Origin: a virus
Lineage: Duplodnaviria > Caudoviricetes
Direction: 5' to 3' (one strand)
Length of the DNA: 60,141 nt
IMG/VR virus record: IMGVR_UViG_3300043579_000337
Location: 1 to 60,141 of that record
Position numbers and translations under genes: made by a program. This document shows positions 8,450 to 60,141 of this stretch, piece by piece. Each line of letters opens with the position of its first letter. Within the stretch, counting starts at the first letter, position 1. The notes beneath the pieces are model-generated. The model did no database searches. It was not told where the DNA came from and saw nothing but the letters and a program-made list of their open reading frames with translations.

Positions 8450-8454
8450 AAAAT

Positions 8455-8637: not shown

Positions 8638-8638
8638 T

Positions 8639-21659: not shown

Positions 21660-21662
21660 ACA

Positions 21663-21836: not shown

Positions 21837-21837
21837 A

Positions 21838-31221: not shown

Positions 31222-31222
31222 A

Positions 31223-31759: not shown

Positions 31760-31763
31760 AAAA

Positions 31764-32723: not shown

Positions 32724-32725
32724 TA

Positions 32726-33163: not shown

Positions 33164-33168
33164 TCATT

Positions 33169-33178
33169 AAAACAGTGC
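33169..33178 (-). promoter_or_regulatory. late-gene box GCACTGTTTT
   Basis: Fills the 15-nt intergenic gap; GCACTG ends 9 nt before GTG 33163. Confidence 0.7.
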
Positions 33179-34006: not shown

Positions 34007-34011
34007 AAATT

Positions 34012-39869: not shown

Positions 39870-40280
39870 TTAAAAATTATGATTTACGTAGGCCGTGCCC
39901 CATCCCGTTCCGCCGTTTAATCCGTTCAACGCCGAAGTATCAGCATACGACTCCATATCGTCATAGTCTTTCAAACCAACATACACGAGGTGGTCTTGAT
40001 AAGCTGCCGAAAAGCCAAATCCGCCATCCAGCCCCTGCAACGGGTCGGCGTCATTATAATCATCCATCTCGTCCAGCGCTTGGATTCCCAGGAACAAATT
40101 TCGGTCCGCATAGACAGACGTCCACTCGATAACAAAAAGATGATTGCCGTCTTCTCCTCCGTCAAGCCCATTTAATACCTCTCCATCGACGTATCCTTCA
40201 AAGTCGTCGTTAGGTATCGCAGCAAACTGCGCGGATGCGGCGCGCAAGAATGCGAGGTCGAGTAAAGACAGACTTCTCAT
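39870..40280 (-). CDS. acidic protein with three internal repeats
   Basis: D(D/E)(F/M)(E/D)xYxDxxxLxGLxGG three times. Confidence 0.7.
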   Translation of the reverse strand: MRSLSLLDLAFLRAASAQFAAIPNDDFEGYVDGEVLNGLDGGEDGNHLFVIEWTSVYADRNLFLGIQALDEMDDYNDADPLQGLDGGFGFSAAYQDHLVYVGLKDYDDMESYADTSALNGLNGGTGWGTAYVNHNF

Positions 40281-44513: not shown

Positions 44514-45467
44514 TCATATTTTATCCAAATCAGCTTGCACCATCAACTTAACCAAATCATAAAACTTGGTTTTGGGTTCCCAACCCAACTGACGTTTTGC
44601 CTTCGACGCATCTCCAATCAACAAGTCCACTTCCGTCGGACGGTAAAGCCGTAGGTCTCCTTCCACGTATTTACGCCAGTCCAGATTCACACAACTAAAC
44701 GCCACGTTCAAAAACTCCTCAACGGTATGGGTTTCACCCGTCGCAATCACGTAATCGTCAGGCCGGTCTTGCTGCAACATCATCCACATAGCTTCGACAA
44801 ACTCCTTGGCGTAACCCCAGTCTCGCTTCGCCTTTAAGTTACCTAGATAGAGTTTATCTTGTTTACCCGACACAATCTGCGCTATCGCCCGGGTTATCTT
44901 ACGCGTCACAAAAGTTTCTCCGCGCCGCGGACTCTCGTGATTGAAAAGAATTCCGTTACTCGCGTGCAGACCGTAGCTTTCGCGATAATTAACCGTCGCC
45001 CAATATGAAAAAACTTTGGCGCAGCCGTAGGGACTGCGTGGATAAAACGGAGTAGTCTCACACTGCGGAACCGCCTGGACCTTGCCGAACATCTCGGACG
45101 AGGAAGCTTGGTAGTAGCGGGGCCGAACTTCCGACTCCCGAATAGCTTCCAGCAACCGGATGGTTCCGAGCGCGTCGACGTCCGCGGTATATTCTGGGCA
45201 GTCGAAACTCACGCGGACGTGCGATTGTGCCCCCAGATTATAAACTTCATCCGGACCAATTTTCGTCATCAACCGCGCCAACGAAGAACCGTCGCTTAGG
45301 TCGCCGTAGTGAATATGGAGTCGGTCGAAAATATGGTCGATGCGACCAGTATTGAACGAACTCGACCGACGGATGATACCGTGGACTTCGTAGCCCTTTT
45401 CCAAAAGCAGCTCGGAAAGATAGCTGCCGTCCTGACCCGTCACGCCAGTAATCAGCGCTTTTTTCAC
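44514..45467 (-). CDS. gmd: GDP-mannose 4,6-dehydratase
   Basis: [62 protein letters not shown]. Confidence 0.97.
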
Positions 45468-46447
45468 TTCGTAATCCTCCTATCCCAACACTCGCGATAC
45501 GTCCGTTCCAAACCTAGCCGAATCGGAGTCATCGGCTCCCAATCCAGCATCGCGCGAGTCTGTGTATTATCGCTACATTTGTGTTTACGTCCCGTCGAAG
45601 CCGTCAGGTCGTAATACCGATTTAAGTGAACGCACGCGATGTCCTCCAGGGTCGTTATCAAATCATTTATCGACACGCATTCCGAATTCGCCAAATTAAG
45701 CGGACCGGAAACCCCCTTCCAGGCCATTTTTAAAGTCCCTTCAACACAGTCGTCGATGTATAAAAAGCTCCGAGTTTGCGACCCGTCGCCCCAGATATTG
45801 ATTTCATGCTGACCGGACAACTTCGCCTCGACCACCTTTCGACACAACGCCGCGATAGCGTGGTCCCGTTCTTCCTCTCGAACATCGCCCGGACCGTAAA
45901 GCCCATGATATCGTGCGATGCTGACAGGAACTCCATACTCTTCTTGAAACGCGAGGCACATCCGCTCGCTAAAAAGTTTCTCCCACCCATAGCCGTCAAT
46001 TGGACTGGCTGGATACGCATCCGATTCTTTCAACATCTGGATTCCATCAGGATAAACACACGATGATGACGAAAAAAAGTATCGAGACACCCCGTGCTTT
46101 TTTGCAGCAAGCAACAGGTTGGTGTTAATCACCGAACTGAGCATACACGAGGCTTTGTGCTTTTCGATGTAGTCTATTCCGCCGACTTTAGCGGCGAAAT
46201 TGAACACCCAATTGGCGCCTTCAAGCGCTCGCTCGCACGCTCGGGCATCCTGTAAGTCCACCTGAACATTCGATGCCCCCTCGGTAATGACGCTCCGCCG
46301 AGGCGATGATACTGCAGTAACGTCGTATCCCCTTTCCACCAAAAACTTCACTAGCGCGCGCCCCACGAATCCCCCCGCGCCACACACGACAATCCGGTCG
46401 GACGAGCCGTCTCTTTTTTCAAACGGCCGATTTAAATATCCATTCAT
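45464..46447 (-). CDS. GDP-mannose 3,5-epimerase-like extended SDR
   Basis: [58 protein letters not shown], matching the GME subfamily. Confidence 0.85.
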
Positions 46448-47166
46448 AAATTTCTCAAATAAAATTTTCGGTCTTCCAGCAGCCGGTTTAACACCCGCTT
46501 GGATTTAACAGTATGGACGAAAACAGTGCCCGCGTAGCGAACCTTGCCGCTGAGCACCCCGAAGTGAAACTCATCGTTTTCCGTGGGAAAGCTGGTAGCA
46601 CCGTTAACAAAGTCTCGGTGCGTAACCAGCGCAAATGACGCAGCCTGGAGCAGCCAGTGGTCGATGACCGGAGTGACTGGGTCCGGCGTAATAAACGCAT
46701 CGACCGACAACAACCTCTTAATCGTCGCGCGCGAGAAAAACCATGGCGGGTGCAGCGCTATCCTGGGTAGCAGGTGCCCAGGCGCCCGCTCGTGCATAAG
46801 GTCCGGAATTTCGTTTGACCAGAGCACATCTGGCTCTTTGTAAAGATACGCCGGCAGTAAAGGGTCGAGACAGAGCGAATCCGCGTCGGCCGCAAAGAAG
46901 TATTGTTCAGGAAATTCCAGCATCATCTGCATGTGAATTTTCTGTCGCGCGATTCCATCTACTCCCACGTAACACTTCTTTCCGCCCGTTCGAAAGGTCA
47001 CATCGGCACCCTCCGGGAGTTCCAATGACTCAATCGGCGCGTCAGCCGGAGAAAACACCGTAACCGGGCACCCGTGGTGCAAATAATACGGGAGCAGGGT
47101 TTGCACCTGATGCGCATCGCCAGCATACGCGAAAACTACGACCCGAGTATTGGGGTTGCCTTTCAT
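46444..47166 (-). CDS. glycosyltransferase-like protein (GT-A, DxD)
   Basis: YFFAADADS, C-terminal FVHTVK; paralogue of 47163-47912. Confidence 0.65.
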   Translation of the reverse strand: MKGNPNTRVVVFAYAGDAHQVQTLLPYYLHHGCPVTVFSPADAPIESLELPEGADVTFRTGGKKCYVGVDGIARQKIHMQMMLEFPEQYFFAADADSLCLDPLLPAYLYKEPDVLWSNEIPDLMHERAPGHLLPRIALHPPWFFSRATIKRLLSVDAFITPDPVTPVIDHWLLQAASFALVTHRDFVNGATSFPTENDEFHFGVLSGKVRYAGTVFVHTVKSKRVLNRLLEDRKFYLRNL

Positions 47167-47912
47167 CTTCGACGGCTGCCCACACTCACGATTTTCTGAC
47201 CCGGTCGAATGCGACGGGACTGTTTCAAAAACGAAGCTCGGTCGCTGACCAACCAGTTAAGCACCCGTTTTTCTTTTATGGAGTGCACAAAAATTTTACC
47301 CTGTGTGCTCACGACACGGCGCATAACCGCGAGCCCCTCCGGGCTGTTCGTAGTGGGATAGCTAGCCCCATCTCGATAATCATTGTAAGGGCATCCCGAA
47401 GCAACCGCCCACGCCATCATTGCCCAGTCGATAAAGGGTGTCTGCATGTCAATCTTCACTCGACCCGCCACACTCAACAACCGCTCGATTACTCGCCGTG
47501 ACATAAAATACGGGGGCTGAAGGGCATACCGCGGCCAGGAATAACTCGACGGACGGGCGTGCATCATATCAGACACTTTATTACTCCAGAGCACCTCCGG
47601 CTCCGCATATACATAGTCCGGAATCTGAGGAGATAGGCAAACCGAATCGGAATCATTCGCCAAGAACCATTCAAAAGGATATTTCAGCATCGCTTCCATT
47701 TGCAGGCACTGCCGGCATAACGACTCCGGTCCGGTATAAGCTCGCTTTCCCGCAAACTGGCAAATATGCGGACCGACCTTTTTAATCGGCGAATCCACCG
47801 GCGAAAAAATTACAACCGAGCACTGGTGATGCTCGTAAAGCGGGAGCGCATTTCGCACCTGGTGTTCATCGCCGGCATACCCATGGACTGTGACCAACGT
47901 AGACGGATTCAT
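47163..47912 (-). CDS. glycosyltransferase-like protein (GT-A, DxD)
   Basis: WFLANDSDS, FVHSIK; shares YAGDxHQV...HHxCxVxxFSPxDxPI with its neighbour. Confidence 0.65.
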   Translation of the reverse strand: MNPSTLVTVHGYAGDEHQVRNALPLYEHHQCSVVIFSPVDSPIKKVGPHICQFAGKRAYTGPESLCRQCLQMEAMLKYPFEWFLANDSDSVCLSPQIPDYVYAEPEVLWSNKVSDMMHARPSSYSWPRYALQPPYFMSRRVIERLLSVAGRVKIDMQTPFIDWAMMAWAVASGCPYNDYRDGASYPTTNSPEGLAVMRRVVSTQGKIFVHSIKEKRVLNWLVSDRASFLKQSRRIRPGQKIVSVGSRRR

Positions 47913-48631
47913 AAAAGATTTTTACGGCTCAGCTCCAAAAGTGATTCATCTTTTACCCCATGAATCCACGAAACCCCCGCCGCTGAAAACGCATTCCAAT
48001 CTGACTGCGTAAACGTCGGGCATCGCCAAAGACTTTTCACGAACGGAAAATCCACCCACCCCCATTTTTTAAACGAGTCCGCGAGCGCCCAATCCCATCC
48101 CACTTTTCCGTCTTGAACCCCGACTGCGAGGAACTTCAAGAAGTTCATCTTGCCGGACAAAAGGCAGCAATCCCCATTGATATGGTCGCGCGCTAGGTTT
48201 GGGATAAGCGCCCCGGCAACAAAAATCTCCTTCGTTTTGTTTGCTGCGCCCCACGCGGCATTCATCTGCGATATCCAATCTTTACGGAGCGGAACGCTGT
48301 CGGCACCGAGAATCAAAACTGCCTTGTAGTGAGGAATTTTTTTACCCATTATTTTTCCATACACCCATTCGATTGCCCCAAAAAAGATAGACGTGCATCC
48401 AAGCGGCCAGCCGACTCCGCGGCGCGTGCTGGTATACGAATAGATGTTGAACTTACGCGAAACGTATTTTTCTGCTTCCACATCATGCTTACAATCAAAC
48501 CGGGAAACGAAAAGGACATCGGCAGACTTACAGTGCTCGGGTTCCAAGTCGGCCAGCAACCTCGCAAGCTGCATCGCCTGGGCACGGTCCTGCTGCCAAA
48601 ACAAAATCGTAATGAGAATCTTGTCGCTCAT
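47909..48631 (-). CDS. glycosyltransferase-like protein
   Basis: GWPLGC, LILGADSVPL..DWI, HING, WDW, WIHGVKD.S; degenerate DxD. Confidence 0.55.
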   Translation of the reverse strand: MSDKILITILFWQQDRAQAMQLARLLADLEPEHCKSADVLFVSRFDCKHDVEAEKYVSRKFNIYSYTSTRRGVGWPLGCTSIFFGAIEWVYGKIMGKKIPHYKAVLILGADSVPLRKDWISQMNAAWGAANKTKEIFVAGALIPNLARDHINGDCCLLSGKMNFLKFLAVGVQDGKVGWDWALADSFKKWGWVDFPFVKSLWRCPTFTQSDWNAFSAAGVSWIHGVKDESLLELSRKNLL

Positions 48632-48702
48632 GCCTCGTATCTACGTAGATACTGCTTGTCGAGCCCACAACACCTACACTTTTTGACTTCCGAGTTATTC
48701 AT
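48628..48702 (-). pseudogene. 24-aa remnant resembling a homing-endonuclease N-terminal Zn knuckle
   Basis: MNNSEVKKCRCCGLDKQYLRRYEA*; ATGA overlaps at both ends. Confidence 0.4.
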
Positions 48703-49568
48703 CCACGAGGCCCGTAAGTGTGATGCCCAATATGCCCGCAAACCGCGCCAAAATCCACATACGGCTGATGCCCGGATTCTGAAGCACGTATAGAAAACTG
48801 CACATCCTCTCCACAACCCAAGCACGATTGGCGTTTCGCATCTCGAAGCGCGCCATCCAGCATCTCATAAGCCTTCAACGATTTTTCTCCCGTCATCGGA
48901 CCTGTGGCCAAAAACTTATGAGTCCGATGAACGTGGTCGAGGAGATTGTGCTCCGAAGTTGAAAACCAGTGCCCGCCCATACCGTCCGGTCCGCGGCCAA
49001 GATGCGGATATTTTTTTTCAATATCTTCAAAGACCGTTCGGTGTATTAAAAGGCATCCTGTCGCCACCCAGCGAGTTGGTTTAATCGTATTGTGTGGAGC
49101 GTTGCGCGCATACTCAATTTCCGCTTTTCCTTCTCCATACATTGGCCAATTGTTAGTTTTGTTTCGACCAAAATAAAGTGCCCCGATTAAAGTTTTATTG
49201 TGTGACATGAGTCGGTCCAAAACATTAAAGCTACAGAACGGTTCTGGAACATCATATTCCATGTATGCGTTAAAAAATTTCGAATTACCAAACGGTAGCA
49301 ACATATCGTCATCCACCGTCAACATAAATTCCAAATCCGATTTCAAAAACAAATCGGCGCACGTATTTCTGGAATGCGCCACGAAGGCATCCCCATAATT
49401 TAACATCATGGACGTTCTTCGCTTATCCGCCAATTGCGCCACACAAAAGGCCGTCACAGGGTGCACATTTTTCATCCACGGGCACACCAACATCACCCTC
49501 TTTTTAAAGATGGCGACAGACGAAGGGGGCGTCACTGCGCCCCCCACAATTCCAATTTCTGGTTCCAT
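48699..49568 (-). CDS. GT2-like glycosyltransferase
   Basis: HSRN...FL...FMLTVDDDM, ATGCLLIHRTVFE, GEDVQFS.RA...G....D....GHIG. Confidence 0.8.
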   Translation of the reverse strand: MEPEIGIVGGAVTPPSSVAIFKKRVMLVCPWMKNVHPVTAFCVAQLADKRRTSMMLNYGDAFVAHSRNTCADLFLKSDLEFMLTVDDDMLLPFGNSKFFNAYMEYDVPEPFCSFNVLDRLMSHNKTLIGALYFGRNKTNNWPMYGEGKAEIEYARNAPHNTIKPTRWVATGCLLIHRTVFEDIEKKYPHLGRGPDGMGGHWFSTSEHNLLDHVHRTHKFLATGPMTGEKSLKAYEMLDGALRDAKRQSCLGCGEDVQFSIRASESGHQPYVDFGAVCGHIGHHTYGPRG

Positions 49569-50905
49569 TAAGCAGCCGCAGCTTTCGCGCGCTCTTCTAT
49601 CACCTGCTTGCGGATGTTATCCAAAGCATCGCCAGCCGGTGTGGTATAATCTTCCTTCTTTTTCGCCGGCACAGTCGGCGCGGTCGACGCGCCAGATTCT
49701 GGCAAACGACTCCGCGAAGACGCTTTGAGCCGAGTCACCAACGCATTCGCTTCATCGAGCTGTTTCTTCACCGTTGCCAACTCGCTGGCCTGCGCCGCGT
49801 TCAGTTTTTGATGCTGAAAAAGCTGCGCCATACCAACCAACATAATGGCGCGCATCTCCGGAGAATCATCCGAAAGCGCCTCGTCAAGTTGTTTCTTCGT
49901 AGTCGCCACGAACTCATTATGCTCCTTGACCGACTTTGTGGTCGCCTCGTCGGCACCGGCGGGAAGTGATTTTTGCGACAACCACGCCAGCCCAGGTAGC
50001 AGCTTATCAAGCTGGGTCTTCGTGGCGTTGAAGTGCGTAGCATGAGACTGTTTAAACGACTGCTCCCGCTCCTGGAGGTATTGACCAATGTTTTCCTTGG
50101 TCGACTTCAATGCCTGCTCCTTGTTAAACTTTTGCTGTTCAATGTCGGCAATTTTTGTTTCGACAAGTCGCTGAATCGTCGGGTCTTTAATAGCCTCGAA
50201 AATCTTGGTCATGTTGACGTTTTCCGGACCGCCGTATTTCTTAATCTGAGCGATAGTTTCATCCGTGACGGCCGGCGACTTCTTGAGCTGGGCGTAAATA
50301 AACTCCTGCGAGGATGTAACCGCCTTGTCGTATTCCTTGAACTTAGGGTCCAGGTCCACATCGAGCTTCGCGCGAAACTGACGAAGTTCTTCGAGTTCTT
50401 TGGTAACTTCCGCGGGCACCGGGTTCTTCGTCTTTTCGGTTAGCTCCGCATTCGCCTTCTCCAGCTCGGCGGCGCGCTGCTCCAGTTTCGAAATCTCCTG
50501 GGCGGCGCGAATCTTGACCGACGAAAATGCCTCCGACGATTTTGGGCTGGCGCCGGCTGGCAGCGTAGGCGAATCCTTGAAAAGCTCGGCGGCACGTTTC
50601 TCGGCCGCTTCATCTTTAGCGGGCGCCGCGGGGACCACGGGCGCCGCAGGCGTAGCCGGCGCCTCTCCCGGCGGAGTTCCCTCTACGGGAGCGGCTGGAG
50701 CTTCACCCTTGGGCTCTACCTTTGGCTCGGGTTCGGCACCCTCTTCCACCGGTTTCTGGGCCTCTTTCAAAAGGTTATCGAGCGCCGAAGAGGTATCGGC
50801 GTTTTCCACCGCAGCCGTAGAGTGTCCGGCGGCGTCCTGGGCGGCGACTTTAGCAGCGATTTCAGCGTTGTGTTCGGCGTTATTGAATTTTGGTTTGTCG
50901 GGCAT
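49568..50905 (-). CDS. capsid scaffolding protein
   Basis: Pro/Ala/Glu-rich N-terminus and long coiled coils; between portal and capsid. Confidence 0.75.
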   Translation of the reverse strand: MPDKPKFNNAEHNAEIAAKVAAQDAAGHSTAAVENADTSSALDNLLKEAQKPVEEGAEPEPKVEPKGEAPAAPVEGTPPGEAPATPAAPVVPAAPAKDEAAEKRAAELFKDSPTLPAGASPKSSEAFSSVKIRAAQEISKLEQRAAELEKANAELTEKTKNPVPAEVTKELEELRQFRAKLDVDLDPKFKEYDKAVTSSQEFIYAQLKKSPAVTDETIAQIKKYGGPENVNMTKIFEAIKDPTIQRLVETKIADIEQQKFNKEQALKSTKENIGQYLQEREQSFKQSHATHFNATKTQLDKLLPGLAWLSQKSLPAGADEATTKSVKEHNEFVATTKKQLDEALSDDSPEMRAIMLVGMAQLFQHQKLNAAQASELATVKKQLDEANALVTRLKASSRSRLPESGASTAPTVPAKKKEDYTTPAGDALDNIRKQVIEERAKAAAA

Positions 50906-50916
50906 ATGATTTTGGG

Positions 50917-51225
50917 TTAGGGTTGAATTTTCTGTCCATCGTTCCAGGCAGCATCATCTATCAGTGGAGGATAGTTAGACGCAGGGTCAGAAGGCGGCAA
51001 TGGAGTGTGGGCCGAGAGAGAAAGTAAATTTCGCGCAGCGTCCTGAAAACCACGAACCTCGCCAGAGCGAATCAAAATCTCGTTAATATCGCCCTTGGCC
51101 AAAAGCCCGGGCGTAGATTCTAACAGCTTGGGCAGAACCCGCTGACCAGTTTGCGTGCTCAGGAACGATGCCCAATTAGCGATGTCGTCAGAACTCCAGG
51201 GCAGTGATTCGGTGGTAATTTCCAT
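50917..51225 (-). CDS. small head-associated protein
   Basis: 102 aa, FL.T.TG...L...GEVRGF; usual slot after a podovirus portal. Confidence 0.65.
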   Translation of the reverse strand: MEITTESLPWSSDDIANWASFLSTQTGQRVLPKLLESTPGLLAKGDINEILIRSGEVRGFQDAARNLLSLSAHTPLPPSDPASNYPPLIDDAAWNDGQKIQP

Positions 51226-51245
51226 AGGTGAACATGGGATGATTT

Positions 51246-53282
51246 TTAGGGGGTTGGTTCGGCGGGCTGCTGTTGAAGCTGCATAGCCTGCTCGTCAAGC
51301 TGTTTCAGCTCAGCGAGCACCTTGCCGGTATTTTTGACGAGGTCCGCGACTTGCTGAAGTTGTTCTTTCGGGGCACCCTGCTCCAAAGCCCGTTGGTAGT
51401 GCTCAGTTATGTGCGCGAGGATGGCCTCCAGCGAAGCAGTCTCCGCCGCCCCTTGCATTATCGCCGAGGCGGTTTGCTCTGCAATCGGCATAATAACGCT
51501 CAAATGCACCTGATGGTTATCACGCGGACTGACCGGCACTGGCTGACCAGAACCAAGCACAATCAACTCCAGTTGCTGCAAACGTTGCTGTTCCACTTCA
51601 ACCGTGGGGTCATTATCCGGAATAAGAACACGCTTGACGAAATCCGCACCTACGCGAGCAGTTAAGTCTTCAACTTCCATCTGCCGCTGATTGTATAATG
51701 GGTTTCCACGCTTCTCAGCCACAACAGCCGCAATCATTTGTCGCTCTAGTGGGGTCAAATCCCGAATTGTGCCGGCGACGGGCTGTTCGGAGATTTCCTT
51801 AATCTCCGCATCAGTCATAAATTCCTTCAATTTCTTGCGAAATTCCTTAGCATCTTTATCATCAATCGCCGCGTCACACAAACGCCGCTGCATGGTGCCG
51901 ACCATATCAGTGAACTGCTCCAAAAATCGAGAAATTTTAGCATCCTTGCCCTCCTCTTCACGCTGCGCAACCAGATTCCAGGCAGTAGACGAGCGCATTG
52001 CCTCACCTTCAAGCTTCGGCGGCGACACGTTGCCAATAAGTTGGTCGACCAGCATCGAAAAATACGCATCGAGCTTCAAAAACGGTTCGATATTGCCATC
52101 AATTTTCTGCTCCAGCACAGTCCAACCCGTCGGAACAATAGCCGTTGCGCCGACAATCGACATTTTGAAGGTATGGATGCGCTTTATATCGCCCTGAATC
52201 AACGTTTTTCCCGAAAGAATAGACCGGTCAACGATTTCGTTCCTCGTCCGGTCTAGCATGCCCGCCAATTCGTAAATATCGCGACCCACTCCCTTGCTTC
52301 CGTGCATTTTTCCGTTGCCTTTTTGATACGCGAAAAACGCGAGGCACGATTCCATCGACTCGAACCGGTCTTCTTTAGCAAAAATCTCGTCCCGGCCGTC
52401 GCCGGCCAGCCGATAGTGCGAAACCTTGCCGTCGACTTCACGCGCAAGCAACGAATATACTGCAATCACGCTGGCACCGGACATATACGATGACCCGAGA
52501 GTCAAATCACGAATCGCGTTCTGATACCACGTCTCCAAATTGCTGGAGCTGCTAAGCTGGTCGCGAAGTTGCGCCGGCGACGCCTTATTTATAGCCTCGA
52601 TAGTTTTTTCGAGCTTCCAACCCACGTCTTTCGCTGCTTCCCGGTCCTTGATGTAAGCAAAAAGTTCGTGTGGAAGATACGTCTCCTTAATCACGACCAC
52701 TTGACTGGAATAAACCGATTGCGAAGTTCCGTCCGGAAGAAAACTTTCATCCTGGTGGAATGCTTTGGGAAACCAAGACAACTCGTCCAGCCACGCGACC
52801 ACAGAGTGACCAAACAGCGCGTTGTCGAAGGCAATATCTTCGATGAGCGGGCGCCAGCCCTTGCGCGCGCGAATGGTGTCCGTAACCAACTTCCGAAATT
52901 TCTCCGTTTTCTGAGTCGAGTTCTCCCATTTATCCGAAAGCGAGGAGTTCGTAAGATACTTCAACCCGTTAATCGCCTCAGTGAATCGCGGCGCGACCTT
53001 CTCTATCATCGAAGGCAGCGGCTTGGTAGTAAAATTCTGTCGCCACCCAAGTCCCTCAGCTTCGAGTTTGTAGGAATCGTATGGCCGCTCCGCGTTATAC
53101 TTAGCCAAAATCCGCCCGTTGACGATTTGCCGATTGCGATTCGCCCCAATAAGAGTGTCGACGATTTCCTTCGCCATCGCAGTATCTTTGACACTGTGCT
53201 GCGTCGGCTTGCCTTCCGAATTGATTTTTGGGCTTTGAATCAGCCCATCGTGGGGAACAGTTGAATCAGAATCAAATGGCAT
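51246..53282 (-). CDS. portal protein
   Basis: 678 aa; downstream of TerL; HGSKGVG, DNHQVH and Gln-rich helical tail as in P22-like portals. Confidence 0.85.
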   Translation of the reverse strand: MPFDSDSTVPHDGLIQSPKINSEGKPTQHSVKDTAMAKEIVDTLIGANRNRQIVNGRILAKYNAERPYDSYKLEAEGLGWRQNFTTKPLPSMIEKVAPRFTEAINGLKYLTNSSLSDKWENSTQKTEKFRKLVTDTIRARKGWRPLIEDIAFDNALFGHSVVAWLDELSWFPKAFHQDESFLPDGTSQSVYSSQVVVIKETYLPHELFAYIKDREAAKDVGWKLEKTIEAINKASPAQLRDQLSSSSNLETWYQNAIRDLTLGSSYMSGASVIAVYSLLAREVDGKVSHYRLAGDGRDEIFAKEDRFESMESCLAFFAYQKGNGKMHGSKGVGRDIYELAGMLDRTRNEIVDRSILSGKTLIQGDIKRIHTFKMSIVGATAIVPTGWTVLEQKIDGNIEPFLKLDAYFSMLVDQLIGNVSPPKLEGEAMRSSTAWNLVAQREEEGKDAKISRFLEQFTDMVGTMQRRLCDAAIDDKDAKEFRKKLKEFMTDAEIKEISEQPVAGTIRDLTPLERQMIAAVVAEKRGNPLYNQRQMEVEDLTARVGADFVKRVLIPDNDPTVEVEQQRLQQLELIVLGSGQPVPVSPRDNHQVHLSVIMPIAEQTASAIMQGAAETASLEAILAHITEHYQRALEQGAPKEQLQQVADLVKNTGKVLAELKQLDEQAMQLQQQPAEPTP

Positions 53283-53288
53283 ACTACC

Positions 53289-53543
53289 TTAAACAGTGCT
53301 CTTTCGAACCCAGACCCGTGACCAGAATCGCTTAGGACACTGTTCGGTGTTAATCCGGGTTTTCGCCTCAAGCAAGCAGGAACAAATCCCACACTGCTCG
53401 CCGTCTCGAAAAGGGCACGGGTCGCAAATCGCCTGCCGATGCTCCACGATTTCTTCCTCAGCCAGCACCTGATACCCGGCCAGCCGCGCGTAGCCAGCGA
53501 TGATAGCCGCAATTGCCAATCGAAAAGGGTTCGGGAATTTCAT
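53289..53543 (-). CDS. Cys-rich small protein (DUF6171-like)
   Basis: R.AIC..CP....QC.IC.C.LEAK.....CP...W. Confidence 0.7.
   Translation of the reverse strand: MKFPNPFRLAIAAIIAGYARLAGYQVLAEEEIVEHRQAICDPCPFRDGEQCGICSCLLEAKTRINTEQCPKRFWSRVWVRKSTV
53291..53299 (-). promoter_or_regulatory. late-gene box GCACTGTTT
   Basis: GCACTG ends 11 nt before the portal ATG. Confidence 0.7.
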
Positions 53544-54103
53544 TTCCGCTTCCTCCAGCAATGGTCCGGAACGTTGTCGAGCTGCGGCTCGTCGAGCCAC
53601 GTGGCCGTCGGAAGGTCGGTGCCCAGTATTGCGCACGCGTGTATCCGGCCATCCTGGCCGCGGTCGCCAAGCACCTCGCGCCGCATCTCTCGGACAATCT
53701 TTTTACAAGACGAGCACCCGCCTGGAAGCTCCGTATTTTGGGGGCACGTCGCGCAAATATTCGCGCGCGCGGTCATGACACCGCCGTCAGTGAAAAGTAT
53801 GTGGCCGACCTTTTTCTTTTTGCGCAGCTCGGCGAACCAAGCCAGCACAATCCCTTTTAAACTCGCACGTTTTGTTTGCATCCGGGTCACCGGGTCGTCG
53901 TTATAACATACAGAAGAATCTCGCGCGCAAGCCTGAGCAGTAATCTCTCCCTCCGGGTCGCCTTTCGGTTTGCCATTAAGCACACGATAGCGAATGACTT
54001 TTTTAATAAGAGCAGCCCACGACGTAGCCTGATGCGGGCTGCCATCAGTCTCTTTGAAAAAATATCCATTTTTCGGCGCGATATTTAGCCGTAGCCTAAG
54101 CAT
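53540..54103 (-). CDS. Cys-rich protein
   Basis: RANICATCPQN...CSSC...CAILG...HCWR; related to its downstream neighbour. Confidence 0.7.
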   Translation of the reverse strand: MLRLRLNIAPKNGYFFKETDGSPHQATSWAALIKKVIRYRVLNGKPKGDPEGEITAQACARDSSVCYNDDPVTRMQTKRASLKGIVLAWFAELRKKKKVGHILFTDGGVMTARANICATCPQNTELPGGCSSCKKIVREMRREVLGDRGQDGRIHACAILGTDLPTATWLDEPQLDNVPDHCWRKRK

Positions 54104-56021
54104 AGTTTGAACCGCGGTCGTCCAAAAAATCTGCCCGATTAGTGGCATCAATTCTGACACCGTTGGGATACTGCCAACTCGAATCGTCATCCGATTCATC
54201 CCCACGGGCTGAGTCAGAATCAGAAGGCACCATCGACGGAATAAATCCGGAACCTTTACGCACCGCATGGACCAACAGCGTAAGCGAATCTGCCTCGTTC
54301 GGAGACGCTTGACTGGTCCGCGTCATGTAATCCCGTTTTGGCTCGACTTTTGTTTGCTTCCCGGCCAGCTTGGACTGCCGCTGGGTAAGCTGCGGCGCGA
54401 GTAGACTCATGTCTATTGAGGGACTCAGCAAAAGATATCCAAACTCCGCAAAATTTCGGAACGCAAACCACAACTCCGCGCACATACGGTCATAGGCTTC
54501 TGCGCAAGTTTGAGTATCCTCCTGCATCAATTTTTCTTCCGACGGACCTGAGGAATAGTTCACCCCATGAATTGACGAGGACCATTCGTGCTTAATCAAG
54601 TCTGCAACTCCCCGCGTATGCCCAGTCTGGTCCACACACAAAAATTGGGGACGAATCATGGCGCGTTTCGCGAACGTAATAACGTGGTCCTTCATCGCCA
54701 CCGTGTCGCCTTTTGGAAGCGTGAACTGCTGCTCAACCTGAAGTCCCCACCGCGGCGTTACGCGCTGGAACTTATCCTTGAACATCACCGTTCGGCCATT
54801 CGGATGTTCTATCGACGGAGGAAGCTTCATGCCCGTCGCGCGCCCCCATTTACCAAGCGTGAACGGCGCCGCGTCGCCGCCGTCGAGCGCAAGGTCGCAT
54901 GCCCCCACTGCAACGGGCGTATCGTGCCAAATAAACTCACCCCGAATTTTGTGAAGCATGCCAGGGGGAATAATCGAAAGCGAAATCCCAGAAGGCGGAT
55001 ATGCGCCACGCCCCATTGAATAATATCCCGCCGTCTCGCGCCCACCCGCATTGCGCGCGATGCGTTCCAAACCCGCTTTATGCTGCAGGTTGGGATAGAT
55101 TATCTTGCCCTGGACTACGTTCTCCGAGCGCTCGCCGTCGAGCCGAAGCACCTCCCACCCGCGCTTTGACTTCCACCGAAAATGTTTTTCAATATCGAAA
55201 CCCTCCCAACCCGTAATCGGCTCCGCGCGCTTGCCCACTTCGTTATGCGGGTCGGTTGGATTGAATGCACCAAAAATTTTGAACCCGCCGACTTCACCCT
55301 CTTCTTCCACGTTCGACAGCACGTTGTCGATATCCTTCCACAATCCCCCCGGGACGTTTTCAATTTCGTCAACGAAAATAAACATCCTCGACAGCGGACC
55401 AAAAATCGGGTGCGGCGATACCCGCGGCTTGCGCTTACCGCCCTGGAGTCGACCGGCCTTTTTGTTGTTGCCCTTTGGAATCACGATACCCTTAATCGAG
55501 CCGAGCTGGTCTCGCCGACTCATGCCGATGAACAGCTCCCCAACTTCTCCTGGCATCGGCAGCTTCGCGGTTCGATGCAGACTGACCAAATGAGAAAAAA
55601 GATTCCGCTCCAAATGGTCTTCATCGGGGCCAATGACTTGAATCGTCGTCCACATCGGGTCTCGAATCCATTCCTGAAACAACCGAACTCCGAGCGAATA
55701 GCTTTTGCTGCACGAGGCACCGCCCATGACGAGGCCGGTATTGGTTTCCTCGAAAAGCTTCCACAAATCCTTTGTAAATCGCGGCTCACATGAAAACTGG
55801 GTCGGAGTCCAAAGAAGTCCAGCGGCTTCCTCGGCCCCGTTACTGTTCAGCAAATAGTGAAGGTAGTGTTGCAGCACTTCGACTGCCGGACCTTCTTTTT
55901 CAATCCGAAGTCCCAGGTTGCAATATTCCGAGACGGAGCGGCCGGCGGAAATGAAATCGCCCACGTGCACGAGCGCAGACACGTCGGACGCAAGCCGTTT
56001 TTCCTGGGGGTCCGTCAACAT
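54096..56021 (-). CDS. terL: terminase large subunit
   Basis: Walker A variant GGASCSKS, Walker B FIFVDE, FNP, nuclease DLALDGGD, VDQTG, SPNEADS. Confidence 0.85.
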   Translation of the reverse strand: MLTDPQEKRLASDVSALVHVGDFISAGRSVSEYCNLGLRIEKEGPAVEVLQHYLHYLLNSNGAEEAAGLLWTPTQFSCEPRFTKDLWKLFEETNTGLVMGGASCSKSYSLGVRLFQEWIRDPMWTTIQVIGPDEDHLERNLFSHLVSLHRTAKLPMPGEVGELFIGMSRRDQLGSIKGIVIPKGNNKKAGRLQGGKRKPRVSPHPIFGPLSRMFIFVDEIENVPGGLWKDIDNVLSNVEEEGEVGGFKIFGAFNPTDPHNEVGKRAEPITGWEGFDIEKHFRWKSKRGWEVLRLDGERSENVVQGKIIYPNLQHKAGLERIARNAGGRETAGYYSMGRGAYPPSGISLSIIPPGMLHKIRGEFIWHDTPVAVGACDLALDGGDAAPFTLGKWGRATGMKLPPSIEHPNGRTVMFKDKFQRVTPRWGLQVEQQFTLPKGDTVAMKDHVITFAKRAMIRPQFLCVDQTGHTRGVADLIKHEWSSSIHGVNYSSGPSEEKLMQEDTQTCAEAYDRMCAELWFAFRNFAEFGYLLLSPSIDMSLLAPQLTQRQSKLAGKQTKVEPKRDYMTRTSQASPNEADSLTLLVHAVRKGSGFIPSMVPSDSDSARGDESDDDSSWQYPNGVRIDATNRADFLDDRGSNYA

Positions 56022-56434
56022 TCGAACCGGTCCGTCGTATCGAAGTTTGCTAAGAAAAAATTGTCCCAGTCCTTGGTCCACGCTGTCTTGAGTATCTGCT
56101 CCACGCCTCGCCGAGTCGCCCACAAAATACCGGGATGATAAAACACAATTCGACTCCGCCGACGCACCGGCGCAAACCCAGAATTAAGAACCGACTTGGG
56201 AACCAGCCACCCGCCGCCGGCGGCATGCAGCGCGAGCCAGGGCAGGGCGAAATCGTGTTTCGCGGGAAGCTTGGCGGTTATCTCCTCGAATAGCGAGCTG
56301 GACCGCGCCTTGCGCGAGGTCAATATCTTTGGTCGCCATCCATGATTCGACCAACTTCGTTCCCAGGCCCGAAAGGATTCGGCCTGTCCCGGCGGGGCGT
56401 CCGGACTGGCGTCGTAATATGAATAGACTATCAC
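56015..56434 (-). CDS. hypothetical, possibly truncated glycosyltransferase-like protein
   Basis: VYSYY...W..SW...GW.P.IL...WLAL..AGGGW, resembling GT32-like N-termini but with no DxD. Confidence 0.5.
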   Translation of the reverse strand: MIVYSYYDASPDAPPGQAESFRAWERSWSNHGWRPKILTSRKARSSSLFEEITAKLPAKHDFALPWLALHAAGGGWLVPKSVLNSGFAPVRRRSRIVFYHPGILWATRRGVEQILKTAWTKDWDNFFLANFDTTDRFEC

Positions 56435-56439
56435 TACTT

Positions 56440-56448
56440 AAACAGTGC
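56440..56448 (-). promoter_or_regulatory. late-gene box GCACTGTTT
   Basis: Just downstream of a terminator; GCACTG ends 8 nt before GTG 56434. Confidence 0.7.
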
Positions 56449-56453
56449 CCCAT

Positions 56454-56484
56454 AAACAAAAATGCCCACCAAAAAGGTGGGCAT
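56454..56484 (-). terminator. intrinsic terminator
   Basis: ATGCCCACC-TTTTT-GGTGGGCAT followed by TTTTGTTT. Confidence 0.8.
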
Positions 56485-56506
56485 ACCGGCCTAAATTGTT
56501 TAAACA

Positions 56507-56725
56507 CTACGGACCCCGTTTCTCACCGTCCTTGGGATGACCGTTCCGAAAATCCGGATGACGCCCGTTTGTGATGCGCGCCAGCCGAAGTTGACGCTGC
56601 TCCGCTTCCAACGCGAGCCGGCGCTCGCACTCAACGCGGAGAGTCTCCCGGGCTTCCTCTACCGCGTCTGTAAACGCCGACGTTCGGCCCTTAAATTTCT
56701 CATACATGAATTGTGCACCGCGCAT
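56507..56725 (-). CDS. hypothetical protein
   Basis: 72 aa; starts 1 nt after the recombinase stop. Confidence 0.6.
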   Translation of the reverse strand: MRGAQFMYEKFKGRTSAFTDAVEEARETLRVECERRLALEAEQRQLRLARITNGRHPDFRNGHPKDGEKRGP

Positions 56726-56726
56726 A

Positions 56727-57497
56727 CTATTCCTCAATTTCTATCATTTTGGTTGGAGTTGTTGAATTAAGCAAATGCTTCACCGTGCCGACACTCCAGG
56801 GCTTCCCATGTCGGGTCCGGAACCCGGACTCGTTGAAATGCTTCGCAATCACAGCGTATTCCATCGGCTGATTGAACTGGTCCAGCACGGAACGAAAATT
56901 GTGAGCCAGATTGATTAGCTCGACTTCCCCCGGTCGAGTGCCGAACGGCTTCTTGCCTTCACATCGGCCGGTCGCCGCCTTCTTGCGGTCGCGCGCGGAG
57001 CGAAGTTTTGAGACCAGCATCGACTTTTCCCACTGCGATAACGCACCGAGGATTTGCCGAATCAGCACCCGGGTCGGGTCTCCCCCGTTGGTCGCCATGT
57101 CAATAAGGGCACCCTGGTCCGCCGCATAAACCTTAAGATTCCGCTTCCGGCACTCCGCCAGGAGAACTTCCGAAACCATCAAGTCACGCGCAAGCCGGTC
57201 CATCCGCTCAACCACAATCGCCGACACACGCGGTTTATTAGTCTCTTCAATCTGCGTTAGCATGCTCGCAAATTCCGGACGGTCTACCGCTTCGACTGTG
57301 CCAGAAACGGCCTGTTCAAAAAATTCCCCGAGCCCTAAATGGTCCGTTAGCAAGTTGTGGGCCTTGCAAAATTTTTGTATTGCCTCTCGCTGGCGGTCCG
57401 GGCCACCTCCGTCAACTTGCCCACGGCCCGAGACCCGGACATAGCTGACAACACGCTCCGGTGCCGGCGGGAGGAAAATAGACGCCGGTGTATTCAT
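56727..57497 (-). CDS. serine recombinase (resolvase catalytic domain plus short recombinase DNA-binding domain)
   Basis: YVRVS, Q, VSG....RPEF, VERMDRLARD; C-terminal IA..FN..G.RTR.GKPWS...V. Confidence 0.92.
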   Translation of the reverse strand: MNTPASIFLPPAPERVVSYVRVSGRGQVDGGGPDRQREAIQKFCKAHNLLTDHLGLGEFFEQAVSGTVEAVDRPEFASMLTQIEETNKPRVSAIVVERMDRLARDLMVSEVLLAECRKRNLKVYAADQGALIDMATNGGDPTRVLIRQILGALSQWEKSMLVSKLRSARDRKKAATGRCEGKKPFGTRPGEVELINLAHNFRSVLDQFNQPMEYAVIAKHFNESGFRTRHGKPWSVGTVKHLLNSTTPTKMIEIEE

Positions 57498-57652
57498 ACG
57501 TAAGGTGGAAAAAGAAAAGGCGGGATTCGCTGCCGAGGATAGAACGGCGGACGAGTCAAAAATGATGGTATCGAATTCCCAATCAACGAACGCCACTGCC
57601 GCCTGCGAAGCATCCTCGACCAATCAGTCCAAGGAAGTCCATTAATTTTCAT
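57494..57652 (-). CDS. small hypothetical protein
   Basis: MKINGLPWTDW..., 52 aa; ATGA-coupled to the recombinase. Confidence 0.4.
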   Translation of the reverse strand: MKINGLPWTDWSRMLRRRQWRSLIGNSIPSFLTRPPFYPRQRIPPFLFPPYV

Positions 57653-57702
57653 AATGTTACTATCGACAAATCGGACCAAGGCAAAAATGTCCGACGCGGG
57701 GC

Positions 57703-57867
57703 TCATCGCGTGAAGCGCGGGGGGCTGAACGTAGCCCGGTAGCACGGGCGTTCCGGATTAATCGGCTCGAACCGCGTGATGCTTTGCTTCACGCCGGCTT
57801 CGTTGGTGTTGTGAAAAACCACCATGCGAAGGTTCTTCTTGACGCTCTCGGAAATTACTTTCTTCAT
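57703..57867 (-). CDS. small hypothetical protein
   Basis: MKKVISESVKKNLR..., 54 aa, behind a promoter. Confidence 0.55.
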   Translation of the reverse strand: MKKVISESVKKNLRMVVFHNTNEAGVKQSITRFEPINPERPCYRATFSPPRFTR

Positions 57868-57876
57868 GTTGCCCTT

Positions 57877-57904
57877 ACTATCGCCATTTGCCGGCAAAAG
57901 TCAA
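57877..57904 (-). promoter_or_regulatory. sigma70-like promoter
   Basis: TTGACT-16 nt-GATAGT; TGnCGATAGTAA recurs at 57657-57668. Confidence 0.55.
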
Positions 57905-57908
57905 GTCC

Positions 57909-57942
57909 AAAAAGGCGAAATCCGCCTTTGCGGGCGGACTCC
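57909..57942 (-). terminator. terminator-like hairpin
   Basis: GTCCGCC-CGCAAA-GGCGGAT followed by TTCGCCTTTTT. Confidence 0.5.
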
Positions 57943-57973
57943 GTTTTATTCGAGGCTCGGTGAGGGGAAACCC

Positions 57974-58144
57974 TTACTTGCCCTTGAGTTTGTCGGATTG
58001 CTCGTTGGTCCAGGCATCGACGACGGCTTTCTTCTTCGGATTTGCCCGAAGGAAAAGATAGCTACCCACGATAGACACCGCGGCAGAAACTACCGCGACC
58101 ACGAAGTGCGAACCATCCAACACTGCTAACAATTCAGTATTCAT
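57974..58144 (-). CDS. 56-aa single-TM membrane protein (not in ORF track)
   Basis: MNTELLAVLDGSHFVVAVVSAAVSIVGSYLFLRANPKKKAVVDAWTNEQSDKLKGK*; late box upstream. Confidence 0.7.
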   Translation of the reverse strand: MNTELLAVLDGSHFVVAVVSAAVSIVGSYLFLRANPKKKAVVDAWTNEQSDKLKGK

Positions 58145-58150
58145 ACACCT

Positions 58151-58159
58151 GAACAGTGC
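58151..58159 (-). promoter_or_regulatory. late-gene box GCACTGTTC
   Basis: Fills the 15-nt gap; GCACTG ends 9 nt before ATG 58144. Confidence 0.7.
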
Positions 58160-59266
58160 CTATTCGCAGGCTGGAACAACCACGCTGTTTGTATCGAGCG
58201 TGACGGCACCGTTGCGCGCGAGCAACCGGCCTTCCACACTGGCGCCGGTCTGCACCGAAATGCTGGTCAGCGCAAGAATGCTCCCTTTGAAAACGGAAGT
58301 AGTTTCCAACGTGGCGGATGCCCCGACTTGCCAGAGCACGTTTTTCGCCTGCGCGCCGCCGGCCAGGATAATTTGCATGCCGGCCGACACCAATAGCGTT
58401 GATGCGATTTGAAAAATGAACACCGCGTCAGCATTGCCCTGCGCGTCCAGCGTAAGGTTTGCCGTGGTAACGGCGAGCGAAGATGTCGATTTGTAGACCC
58501 CGGGGGTAAGCGTTTGCCCGCCCAAGTCGCCGGCTACCGAGGTGCTACCTCCACGACCCTCCAAGTCCAGATACGCGGCGGTCAGCGCGAGCTGCGCATT
58601 GGCCGCTTCCACATCCGTCACGTGTTGCTCCCCGAGCACGATGCCAGGAGGAAAACCGGTAACGGAACTGCCGGGACTCAAACCCAAGTCCCCATCAATA
58701 ATAGTCGCACCGGTGTTCGTAATTGTAGTGCCGGCCAGAATCCCGAAACCGCACGCAGCCAACAACAGTTGCGCGGACTCACCGCCGGCTTCACCAATAC
58801 CAACCGCGCCCGCGTCGGCGCACAGTATCGCGCGCAGCAACGTAGTAAACGGAGAATTCAACAGCCCGGTTTGAAAGGTTCCTGGGCACCCACAAACAAA
58901 GCCGCAGCCATCGCGAAAAACCCGAGCAAGTTCATCGGACGCTTTTTGGTCGAGATGGGCCCCGCCCGAACTGCCACGTTCCATGTAGTCGATTACCCAC
59001 TGAATAATCGCTTGGTCAGCCGCAGACATGCCGGTCTGCTCCCCGAGGCAGAGCACAACTTGCAACAGAGTAGTATACGGAGTTTCGTCGAGTCCTTCCT
59101 GAAAGCTACCGGGGCACCCGCACCGGAATCCGCACATGTTCCGGAACACGCGCGCCAGTTCGTCGGACACTTTCTGGTCGATGTGCGCGTTACCGGCGCC
59201 GCCGCGTTCCATGTAGTCGATTACCCATTGCACGGTGGCCCGCTGTGATTCTGTTAAAACTGCCAT
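58160..59266 (-). CDS. ice-binding-like (DUF3494) protein with duplicated Cys-rich N-terminal unit
   Basis: FGILAG.TITNTG.T.I.GDLGLSPG..VTGFPPG...DLGGQTLTPGVY...LTLDAQGN.DAVFIFQ...GAQAKNV.WQVG.SATL...GRLLARNGAVTLDTN. Confidence 0.92.
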   Translation of the reverse strand: MAVLTESQRATVQWVIDYMERGGAGNAHIDQKVSDELARVFRNMCGFRCGCPGSFQEGLDETPYTTLLQVVLCLGEQTGMSAADQAIIQWVIDYMERGSSGGAHLDQKASDELARVFRDGCGFVCGCPGTFQTGLLNSPFTTLLRAILCADAGAVGIGEAGGESAQLLLAACGFGILAGTTITNTGATIIDGDLGLSPGSSVTGFPPGIVLGEQHVTDVEAANAQLALTAAYLDLEGRGGSTSVAGDLGGQTLTPGVYKSTSSLAVTTANLTLDAQGNADAVFIFQIASTLLVSAGMQIILAGGAQAKNVLWQVGASATLETTSVFKGSILALTSISVQTGASVEGRLLARNGAVTLDTNSVVVPACE

Positions 59267-59291
59267 AAAATTTTTCGTTATTGATGCTATG

Positions 59292-59301
59292 AAAACAGTG
59301 C
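59292..59301 (-). promoter_or_regulatory. late-gene box GCACTGTTTT
   Basis: Intergenic; 29 nt before the DUF3494 ATG. Confidence 0.65.
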
Positions 59302-59325
59302 TCGGATAGGACGACCCTTAATACC

Positions 59326-59559
59326 CTAGGTCAACTTTAAAATAATCTTTATTTGGCTACGCGTGTCGGCCGATGCTTCCGACAAGGCAGCACTAACTTT
59401 TACCACGTCGATTTGACGATGCGTGTCTATCAAATCGATTAAACGAGTCCTCAACGTCTCCAAAAAGAACTCCTCGGAGGTCTGACCACGCACCGCTAAT
59501 TCCGCCGCCAAGGCAGCCTCTTCCTCCGCATCAGTATCAATTTTTATCTGGTATTCCAT
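59326..59559 (-). CDS. hypothetical protein
   Basis: 77 aa, MEYQIKID... Confidence 0.65.
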   Translation of the reverse strand: MEYQIKIDTDAEEEAALAAELAVRGQTSEEFFLETLRTRLIDLIDTHRQIDVVKVSAALSEASADTRSQIKIILKLT

Positions 59560-59563
59560 ATTT

Positions 59564-60141
59564 TTAATTTTGCACAAGGATTACAACAAAACTAGTGTCA
59601 CACCGAACCGCCGCCGCCGTTCCACCCGAAATGGTCGATACTTTAATCCGCGCCAACGCCGGATACTTCTGAAATGGTAGCAACAACGTAGTGGCATTCG
59701 TGTTGGTAGCAACCGCCGCGTTGGCCTGATAGGTGTAAACCGTAGAAAGCGTCCGGTCCAAAGTATGAACGGTAGCTTGCATCCGAACATCCTGGTCGTT
59801 ATTGATTGCGTGCGCACGCCAATTCGGAATATATGCCGTATATCCCGTAGGAACCATAAACCGAGCCGTCATAGATTTATTTCCCCCCAAAGAAATTTGT
59901 TCAACTTCCACCACGCCGCCATTAATCCTCAATCGAATATTACCCGCGGCGCGACCCCCGCTGCCGACCGTAACAGCTTCCATCCAAAGCACCTCATTGA
60001 CTCCCGTCAACACGCCCGTAACAAGCGTAGTCCCATTTAAATTTATTGCCGGAGACTCAACCAAATTATTGCTACTGTTGATATACACGACCTTGACTTG
60101 CCGAACACCGGTGCCCGCCGTGTTTGTATCCGCCACATTGG
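59564..60141 (-). CDS. phage structural beta-rich protein, 5'-truncated
   Basis: DT..GTG.R.V...LNGT..V...GS...AG.I...N.S..A.F.VP.GYTAY pattern; open to the window edge. Confidence 0.7.
   Translation of the reverse strand, partial: NVADTNTAGTGVRQVKVVYINSSNNLVESPAINLNGTTLVTGVLTGVNEVLWMEAVTVGSGGRAAGNIRLRINGGVVEVEQISLGGNKSMTARFMVPTGYTAYIPNWRAHAINNDQDVRMQATVHTLDRTLSTVYTYQANAAVATNTNATTLLLPFQKYPALARIKVSTISGGTAAAVRCDTSFVVILVQN

Follow-up and report, generated by a model that had tools for sequence, protein, structure and literature searches.

What does a tailed phage do with a domain of the ice-binding type? The question is raised by the virus record IMGVR_UViG_3300043579_000337 of IMG/VR (Duplodnaviria; Caudoviricetes), a linear sequence of 60,141 bases, estimated to be 83% complete, which we analysed over its whole length and refer to here as the window. 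One of its open reading frames (ORFs), located at 58160-59266 on the minus strand, starts with ATG and encodes a protein of 368 amino acids (aa), the target of this work, which ends in a DUF3494 domain. Such domains are known as secreted microbial ice binders, and the viral copies reported to date have been interpreted solely as genes of benefit to the host. What is new here is a DUF3494 that looks like plug-in cargo on an undescribed phage module. The answer that we favour, and to which we give about even chances, is that the target is a late protein with an extracellular function, most likely bound to the virion, in which the module would be the anchor and the DUF3494 domain the binding head.

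The protein is made up of two copies of an N-terminal module, a variable linker and a beta-solenoid, all encoded on the minus strand. The first module copy (residues 1-78, 59033-59266) and the second (residues 79-152, 58811-59032) were delimited by the repeat alignment and by AlphaFold2 (AF2) models, and have four helices each. The linker (residues 153-171, 58754-58810) is modelled with low confidence, and the DUF3494 (Ice_binding) solenoid (residues 172-368, 58163-58753) is bracketed by Cys172 and Cys367. A preliminary description of this locus had reported a complete DUF3494 domain preceded by two repeats of ~75 aa, and both were borne out, the domain by its Pfam match and the repeats by their alignment compared with shuffled sequences. 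The profile PF11999 (Ice_binding) matched residues 176-362 over positions 1-207 of its 208 (E 1.8e-64, 217.6 bits vs. a cutoff of 28.7). The closest solved sequence relative was EfcIBP (6EIO), a proven ice binder (phmmer E 1.9e-59, residues 169-365), after which further IBP-1-type ice-binding proteins (IBPs) ranked. In the AF2 model of the full protein, a predicted and not a solved structure that was built on 32 full-length relatives, the domain forms a confident solenoid with strands from 174 to 363, one long helix (219-236) and a predicted local distance difference test score (pLDDT) mostly of 85-97, which falls below 50 at residues 156-166 of the linker. The solenoid is also the most strongly conserved part of the 32 relatives (mean pairwise identity 73%, with 56-60% for the modules and 35% for the linker, which varies in length as well). 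We regard it as an ice-binding-type domain similar to EfcIBP, with a putative ice activity.

The N-terminal half is of a very different nature. Residues 6-73 and 82-149 align with a score of 262, when 300 shuffles gave a mean of 25.0 (standard deviation 4.4, maximum 40), and at the DNA level the copies, which lie 228 nt from each other, are 73% identical over 131 nt. Residues 1-160 compared with 1.84 billion representative sequences retrieved 23 clusters at E<=0.001, two of them spurious repeat proteins. The 21 real ones comprised eight with DUF3494, nine with modules alone (either single, 76-87 aa, or double, 141-196 aa), two fragments and two with other C-terminal regions. Whether the repeat is fused to other domains had been proposed as a check, and these last two clusters, both distant, supply the cases: P0135 carries a C-terminal region with a sub-threshold match to BspA-type leucine-rich repeats, and P0136 one of ~240 aa without an assigned family. 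Every module locus that we inspected was phage-like. In the AF2 model of the double module (pLDDT 81, predicted template modelling score 0.81), the two four-helix units pack together as a single compact body. Neither PHROG nor Pfam gave a match to the module; its fold found nothing at E<=0.001 with Foldseek on the PDB, a best Z of 4.8 in the VIA wide search of 48,161 chains and no usable match in the ESM Atlas, and a single-protein query against 185,579 species genomes found no relative. The whole target had no tblastn match at E<=1e-5 in 50,697 deposited phage records, and full-text searches of the literature found no description of the module or of its fusion to DUF3494. Judged from these comparisons, the module is rare, restricted to phages, all-helical and previously undescribed.

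The relationship between the two halves becomes apparent when related phage loci are compared. They occupy two genomic sites. At the first, upstream of a serine recombinase gene (identities to the window of 74% for the recombinase, 77% for a 675-aa protein and 87% for a 678-aa protein), the loci L002, L003, L004 and L011 have a double module of 151 aa without DUF3494 and L012 has a single module of 76 aa alone, where the window has two modules and the DUF3494 domain. With or without DUF3494, these genes are all followed by the same 56-aa membrane ORF (L003, L012). The second site is located within the morphogenesis block, between a 242-aa gene and the homologue of a 441-aa protein of the window. 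Here L013 has a module of 75 aa alone and L015 a module plus DUF3494 (284 aa), and the flanking proteins of the two appear near-identical from their printed translations. DUF3494 is therefore optional on the module in two independent near-isogenic pairs. In the more distant L007 and L014 a single module with DUF3494 is found upstream of a recombinase, and L007 has an additional stand-alone module, free of cysteines, just ahead of this gene. As indicated by these pairs, with and without the domain at the same sites, and by the two members with other C-terminal domains, the module is the constant part and DUF3494 an optional, swappable cargo.

The evolutionary origin of this cargo can be traced to some extent. 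A FastTree phylogeny of 195 domain copies placed 54 module-linked copies plus one other viral copy on one side of a single split (55 rows, Shimodaira-Hasegawa-like support 98) and the 140 cellular copies on the opposite side, so that the phage or cell label changes just once; the tree is unrooted, samples only the best matches to the target query and contains several long branches. On this tree the phage DUF3494 copies are an old separate clade and not recent captures from hosts. The nearest cellular proteins reach 62-68% identity across the solenoid half and have signal-peptide-like starts and two solenoids with a Big_5 domain between them. An example is P0066, from a metagenome-assembled genome (MAG) labelled Candidatus Eisenbacteria; the signal peptide, the second solenoid, the Ig-like spacer and the place on the cellular side of the split are all features that the target does not share. 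In BFVD there were three matches at E<=0.001, all of them proteins of eukaryotic giant viruses (Hyperionvirus) without the N-terminal module, the best at E 1.1e-16 and 40% identity. Two large viral contigs that are unrelated to the window combine DUF3494 with other partners. One is L005 (103 kb), source of the additional viral copy in the tree; its DUF3494 protein (7983-9047) lacks a signal peptide, is extended at the C-terminus and is encoded beside a 1652-aa ORF. The other is L006 (125 kb), in which the corresponding protein (7236-8678), also without signal peptide, has an N-terminal extension and adjoins the large terminase and an Ig-like protein.

That the target has no signal peptide had been noted beforehand and is correct. 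Its N-terminus, MAVLTESQRATVQW..., read directly, contains no hydrophobic stretch, and the open frame extends just 17 codons upstream of the ATG, which leaves no space for a hidden signal peptide. Like EfcIBP (6EIO), AnpIBP (7BWX), IBPv (5UYT) and FfIBP (4NU2), the target has a full-length DUF3494 of the single-domain IBP-1 type. It differs from EfcIBP-type proteins in this missing signal peptide, in the two phage-only helical modules placed in front and in a phage-specific cysteine pair around the solenoid, the cellular relatives being mostly free of cysteines; its own ice binding is putative. In the part of PMC6892780 that deals with the predicted ice-binding site, this is the B face.

The cysteines bear on where the protein might function. 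There are ten in the target: 45, 49, 51 and 73 in the first module copy, 121, 125, 127 and 149 in the second, and 172 and 367 at the ends of the solenoid. Of the 112 distinct module instances, 98 have both Cys45 and Cys73, 13 have neither and one has a single residue of the pair, and Cys51 always occurs with exactly one partner, either Cys49 (82 instances) or Cys42 (19). The pair of the Cys172/Cys367 type behaves in the same way (both 38, neither 12, one only 1). The module pairs 45/73 and 51/(49 or 42) are lost separately (six instances retain only the second, four only the first and six none), and each pair has been lost independently in several unrelated sequences, although, with sequences that are related by descent, all these counts make independent events look more numerous than they are. 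We considered a four-cysteine zinc site in the module and rejected it: the residues are kept or lost by pair, not all four together, which is how disulfide partners behave and not the ligands of one metal. The ten cysteines would thus make five disulfide-type pairs, predicted to be 45-73, 49-51, 121-149, 125-127 and 172-367. The cellular relatives have a median of 0 cysteines (50 out of 73 have none at all) and the phage-type proteins a median of 10. The cysteine pattern suggests a function outside the cytoplasm, and in combination with the absent signal peptide it points to a protein that would fold inside the cell, exit at lysis and become oxidised outside.

A motif ahead of its start connects the gene to the morphogenesis genes. 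The preliminary description had placed a late box upstream, and the motif is indeed there: GCACTGTT is located at 59294-59301 (minus strand), 28 nt before the target ATG, with a TTGACC 27 nt further upstream. The window contains eight copies, all eight on the minus strand (positions 53292, 56441, 58152, 59294 and four more), when 1.67±1.32 were expected and none of 100 shuffles reached eight. It lies 8-30 nt before the starts of the target, of the 56-aa ORF, of a 139-aa ORF and of the 678-aa portal-like ORF, at positions that are kept in L003, and is thus common to the target, the portal-like gene and other genes of the morphogenesis block. In L013 and L015 a related arrangement, TTGACC-N16-CCACTGTTT, is found ahead of the module gene and again ahead of the following 432-aa gene, with a hairpin terminator between the two genes, and the 441-aa gene of the window is preceded by TTGACG-N16-GCACTGATT. 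A protein with sigma-70 region 4 is encoded at 17143-17916, and GCACTGTT is likely a phage-specific promoter read by this sigma-like protein of the phage itself. In this case the motif would act as a late promoter and the target would be expressed late.

The gene belongs to a short operon that also includes the 56-aa single-pass membrane ORF (TM56, 57974-58144, minus strand; GCACTGTT just upstream at 58152-58159) and is closed by an intrinsic-terminator-like hairpin at 57916-57943 (minus strand; a stem of 11 pairs, seven of them GC, and a T tail), the first-listed site in a scan of 50000-60141. Equivalent hairpins are found 3' of the module gene in L013 and L015. Beyond the terminator, the recombinase unit has a separate sigma-70-like site. 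Between the two lies a small ORF (57703-57897, minus strand; MKKVISES...RFEPINP), with a sigma-70-like site upstream and kept in L003 and L012, which may be a recombination directionality factor or a regulator. We also considered an invertible tail-fibre segment of the Gin/Cin type and rejected it, as the six short inverted pairs (14-24 nt, 71-93% complementarity) do not bracket the gene; no inverted DUF3494 copy was found in L003, and there were no joints that would reveal deletion variants of the target region among the contigs of the runs compared. On the other side, the 83-aa ORF at 59326-59577 (minus strand) had no family match at E<=0.001 and, according to the printed translations, has a homologue ahead of the L012 module gene. 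Its family reappears in P0012 (383 aa), in which the solenoid stops near residue 257 and the protein continues as a homologue of this ORF; P0012 is either an assembly chimera or a recombinant.

This is phage DNA and not flanking host DNA, the case that would have refuted the preliminary description, since conserved phage genes are found on both sides and the region is contained within contigs of ~74 kb. Near-identical DNA was found in two soil runs, which may be the origin of the record, and in two sediment runs from other studies. The stretch 56000-60141 shows no difference from the ~74.2 kb contigs of two runs, and contigs of the sediment run X3 tile 56082-60141 without a difference, one short gap excepted. 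None of the runs with near-identical DNA is listed as RNA.

The location of the gene among structural genes, as first described, holds for the related phages but not for the window, where the neighbours are unannotated small genes (including those immediately upstream), the 56-aa membrane ORF and the serine recombinase, and where the target is not beside the 441-aa gene. In L003 and L012 the module gene closes a cluster headed by a tail-fibre gene of the Mtd_N type, within one to four genes. In L013 and L015 the next gene downstream of it is the 432-aa hallmark gene, the homologue of the 441-aa gene of the window. The latter (42964-44289, minus strand) encodes a protein with 18 cysteines, several of them invariant, and has >1,000 homologues, all of them unannotated, which are located on contigs of up to ~78 kb; identity ranges from 70 to 93% among the best 120. 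It is located at the place expected for the capsid gene, after portal-like and scaffold-like genes, and is probably the (putative) capsid protein of a large group of uncultured soil and sediment phages that has no relative among the deposited phages. Searches of the 441-, 445-, 675- and 678-aa proteins against Pfam and PHROGs gave nothing at E<=0.001 (with E allowed to reach 10, three of the proteins had weak, unusable PHROG matches), PDB sequence searches with the 441-, 445- and 675-aa proteins and with a profile of the 441-aa one gave nothing usable, and the 441- and 678-aa proteins had no tblastn match in deposited phages. The ESM Atlas provided a weak scaffold-like lead for the 445-aa protein. 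Among species genomes, the 675-aa gene was detected on just two MAG contigs, both short and lacking the module, with the labels Chlamydiales and Peribacteraceae; these may be mis-binned phage DNA. A complex prediction of the double module with the 441-aa protein had a score of 0.00, uninformative either way.

Between the scaffold-like gene and the 441-aa gene there is also a sugar-nucleotide cassette (44514-49568, minus strand) with a GDP-mannose 4,6-dehydratase, an epimerase, three ORFs of ~240 aa and a 289-aa ORF matching phrog_1574, a family that is also matched by a glycosyltransferase-like ORF of L006. It may serve the glycosylation of the virion or of the DNA, and in L013 the module gene fills part of the space that it occupies.

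These observations can be put together in a model in which a constant, phage-only four-helix module, here a fused pair in one compact body stapled by the disulfide-type pairs, would carry an optional DUF3494 solenoid on a flexible linker. The protein would be synthesised in the cytoplasm without signal peptide, be released at lysis and function in the oxidising exterior. The module would attach it to the virion, be it to the head, beside the 441-aa hallmark protein, or to a tail fibre, and the solenoid would act as a surface-binding head for ice, exopolysaccharide or some other ordered surface. The attachment, its site and the ligand are what we infer. The preliminary description had likewise proposed an anchor with a displayed solenoid, and this part gains from the optional DUF3494 on a constant module, from the other C-terminal domains, from the motif shared with morphogenesis genes and from the cysteine pattern, but the docking of the module on the capsid does not, the single hint being the gene directly upstream of the 441-aa homologue in L013 and L015. 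In L003 and L012 the gene instead comes after Mtd_N-type fibre genes, which makes attachment to a fibre just as conceivable. Phages have display-type proteins, such as gpD of lambda, Soc and Hoc of T4 and fibre-tip adhesins like T4 gp38. What we propose is of the same kind, a small constant part with a swappable binding domain directed outwards, encoded beside the putative capsid gene (L013, L015) or after the fibre genes (L003, L012). It differs from them in that no likeness of sequence or fold was found and the attachment to the particle is proposed here from the genes.

Several observations weigh against a virion-attached protein. Attachment itself is deduced from gene context and sequence, and the capsid identity of the 441-aa protein is putative. 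In the searches described, no structural, decoration or fibre protein was similar to the module in sequence or fold, and the existence of stand-alone modules shows that it has a function of its own. The disulfides are deduced from the co-variation of related sequences. In the window the use of cysteine is split, the block 21024-34045 (which includes a 2281-aa ORF) having none, the 441-aa protein 18 and the target 10, and with its ten the target departs from the cysteine-free habit of that block. The role of GCACTGTT as a late promoter is also a matter of inference, and the -35-like TTGACC upstream of the target stands 27 nt off, not 16. In the window, L003, L007 and L014 the gene adjoins a serine recombinase as a self-contained cassette ended by a terminator, a moron-like layout. 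Finally, the habitat of the samples, which had been suggested as a check, gave no sign of ice: the labels of the runs with the gene are generic soil and sediment and silent on temperature. In the relevant passage of PMC7783341, DUF3494 IBPs are also reported from warm habitats.

Part of the evidence would suit other explanations as well. The absence of a signal peptide, the disulfide-type pairs, the self-contained cassette with its own motif and terminator and the lack of likeness to any structural protein would all fit a free extracellular protein, made late, released by lysis and not incorporated into the particle, whose module would serve to fold or oligomerise and whose solenoid would act in the water film outside, for example by slowing ice recrystallisation near released virions and adjacent host cells, or stick to the matrix. 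We find this rather unlikely, as it leaves unexplained that near relatives retain a bare module at these sites and that unrelated C-terminal domains sit on the same module, and a soluble binder would need no conserved phage-specific partner domain. Small phage proteins containing cysteines are often intracellular, the overall cysteine content of the target resembles that of the enzymes of the window, and in L003 and L012 its gene comes after tail-fibre genes, the usual position of genes for fibre chaperones. It could then be that the module is a small regulator or inhibitor (acting in host takeover, anti-defence or as a chaperone of fibre assembly) and that the solenoid binds a cytoplasmic target. 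This appears very improbable to us, with cysteines that are kept or lost in pairs and not as a four-ligand site, cellular relatives that carry signal peptides, C-terminal cargo domains that resemble surface binders, and solved relatives of the C-terminal domain that are all, among those listed, named ice-binding, antifreeze, Ig-domain or DUF3494.

The remaining alternative is the one already applied to viral DUF3494. In the passages of PMC11515562 devoted to them, three genes of viral operational taxonomic units from Arctic viromes, annotated as PF11999, are interpreted as host cryoprotection genes. They are virus-borne and of the same Pfam family as the target, and an auxiliary or lysogenic-conversion gene supplying an ice-binding protein to the host would also agree with the terminator-bounded cassette next to a serine recombinase and with a domain so close to secreted cellular proteins. 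For the target we judge it quite improbable. The protein would have to be exported and does not have the signal peptide that its cellular relatives possess, and that DUF3494 IBPs normally carry according to the section of PMC7783341 on this point. The gene shares its motif with morphogenesis genes, the sigma-70-like site of the recombinase unit being a separate one; the domain belongs to a clade of phage copies that is old and distinct from the cellular ones, and the constant part of the protein is a phage-only module. Unlike what the cryoprotection interpretation in those passages of PMC11515562 implies, the domain is here an optional cargo, under a shared motif and without export signal, and for these reasons a protein of the particle or one released by lysis is a better fit for the target than a gene that benefits the host, a comparison of interpretations and not of sequences.

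The findings have a bearing beyond this phage. The pairs with and without DUF3494 in near-identical genomes are a ready-made natural test of what the domain is worth to the virus, the module is a candidate for a natural display platform, and the cysteine signature translates into a simple prediction, namely five disulfides. Should the ligand be ice, virus particles would be adapted to frozen habitats and phages would be indicated as carriers of ice-binding genes; should it be a polysaccharide, there would be more weight for many DUF3494 domains as general surface binders. At its most far-reaching, the particles of a widespread group of soil and sediment phages would carry a swappable, working ice-binding solenoid on a disulfide-stapled anchor, and some virions would stick to or shape ice in seasonally frozen ground, a scenario that we consider clearly unlikely. 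In the same scenario, the old pool of DUF3494 cassettes resident in phages might help to spread ice-binding genes horizontally, a much-discussed process whose mechanism is called unknown in the corresponding part of PMC7783341.

Some other features of the window deserve mention. Cysteine makes up 1.6% of residues on average and 2-4% in the enzymes and in the 441-aa protein, and there are fourteen ORFs without any: among them are eight of at least 100 aa in 21024-34045, a 136-aa ORF (39870-40280) and the 445-aa and 102-aa ORFs of the region 49568-51225. This two-class usage may separate the tail and scaffold proteins from the others. One of the cysteine-free ORFs, of 2281 aa (21838-28683, minus strand), is located at the distal end of the structural block and matches DUF7178 close to its C-terminus. 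A search of the window for tRNA genes gave none. Three genes resembling homing endonucleases of the endonuclease VII or HNH type (14216-14692, 28581-29252 and 38358-38816) are scattered through the replication and structural blocks. At the very beginning of the record (1-338), units of 9 and 12 nt form a tandem array rich in GC, with 20 copies in register, cut by the record end, that would encode Ala-, Pro- or Gly-rich sequence depending on the frame.

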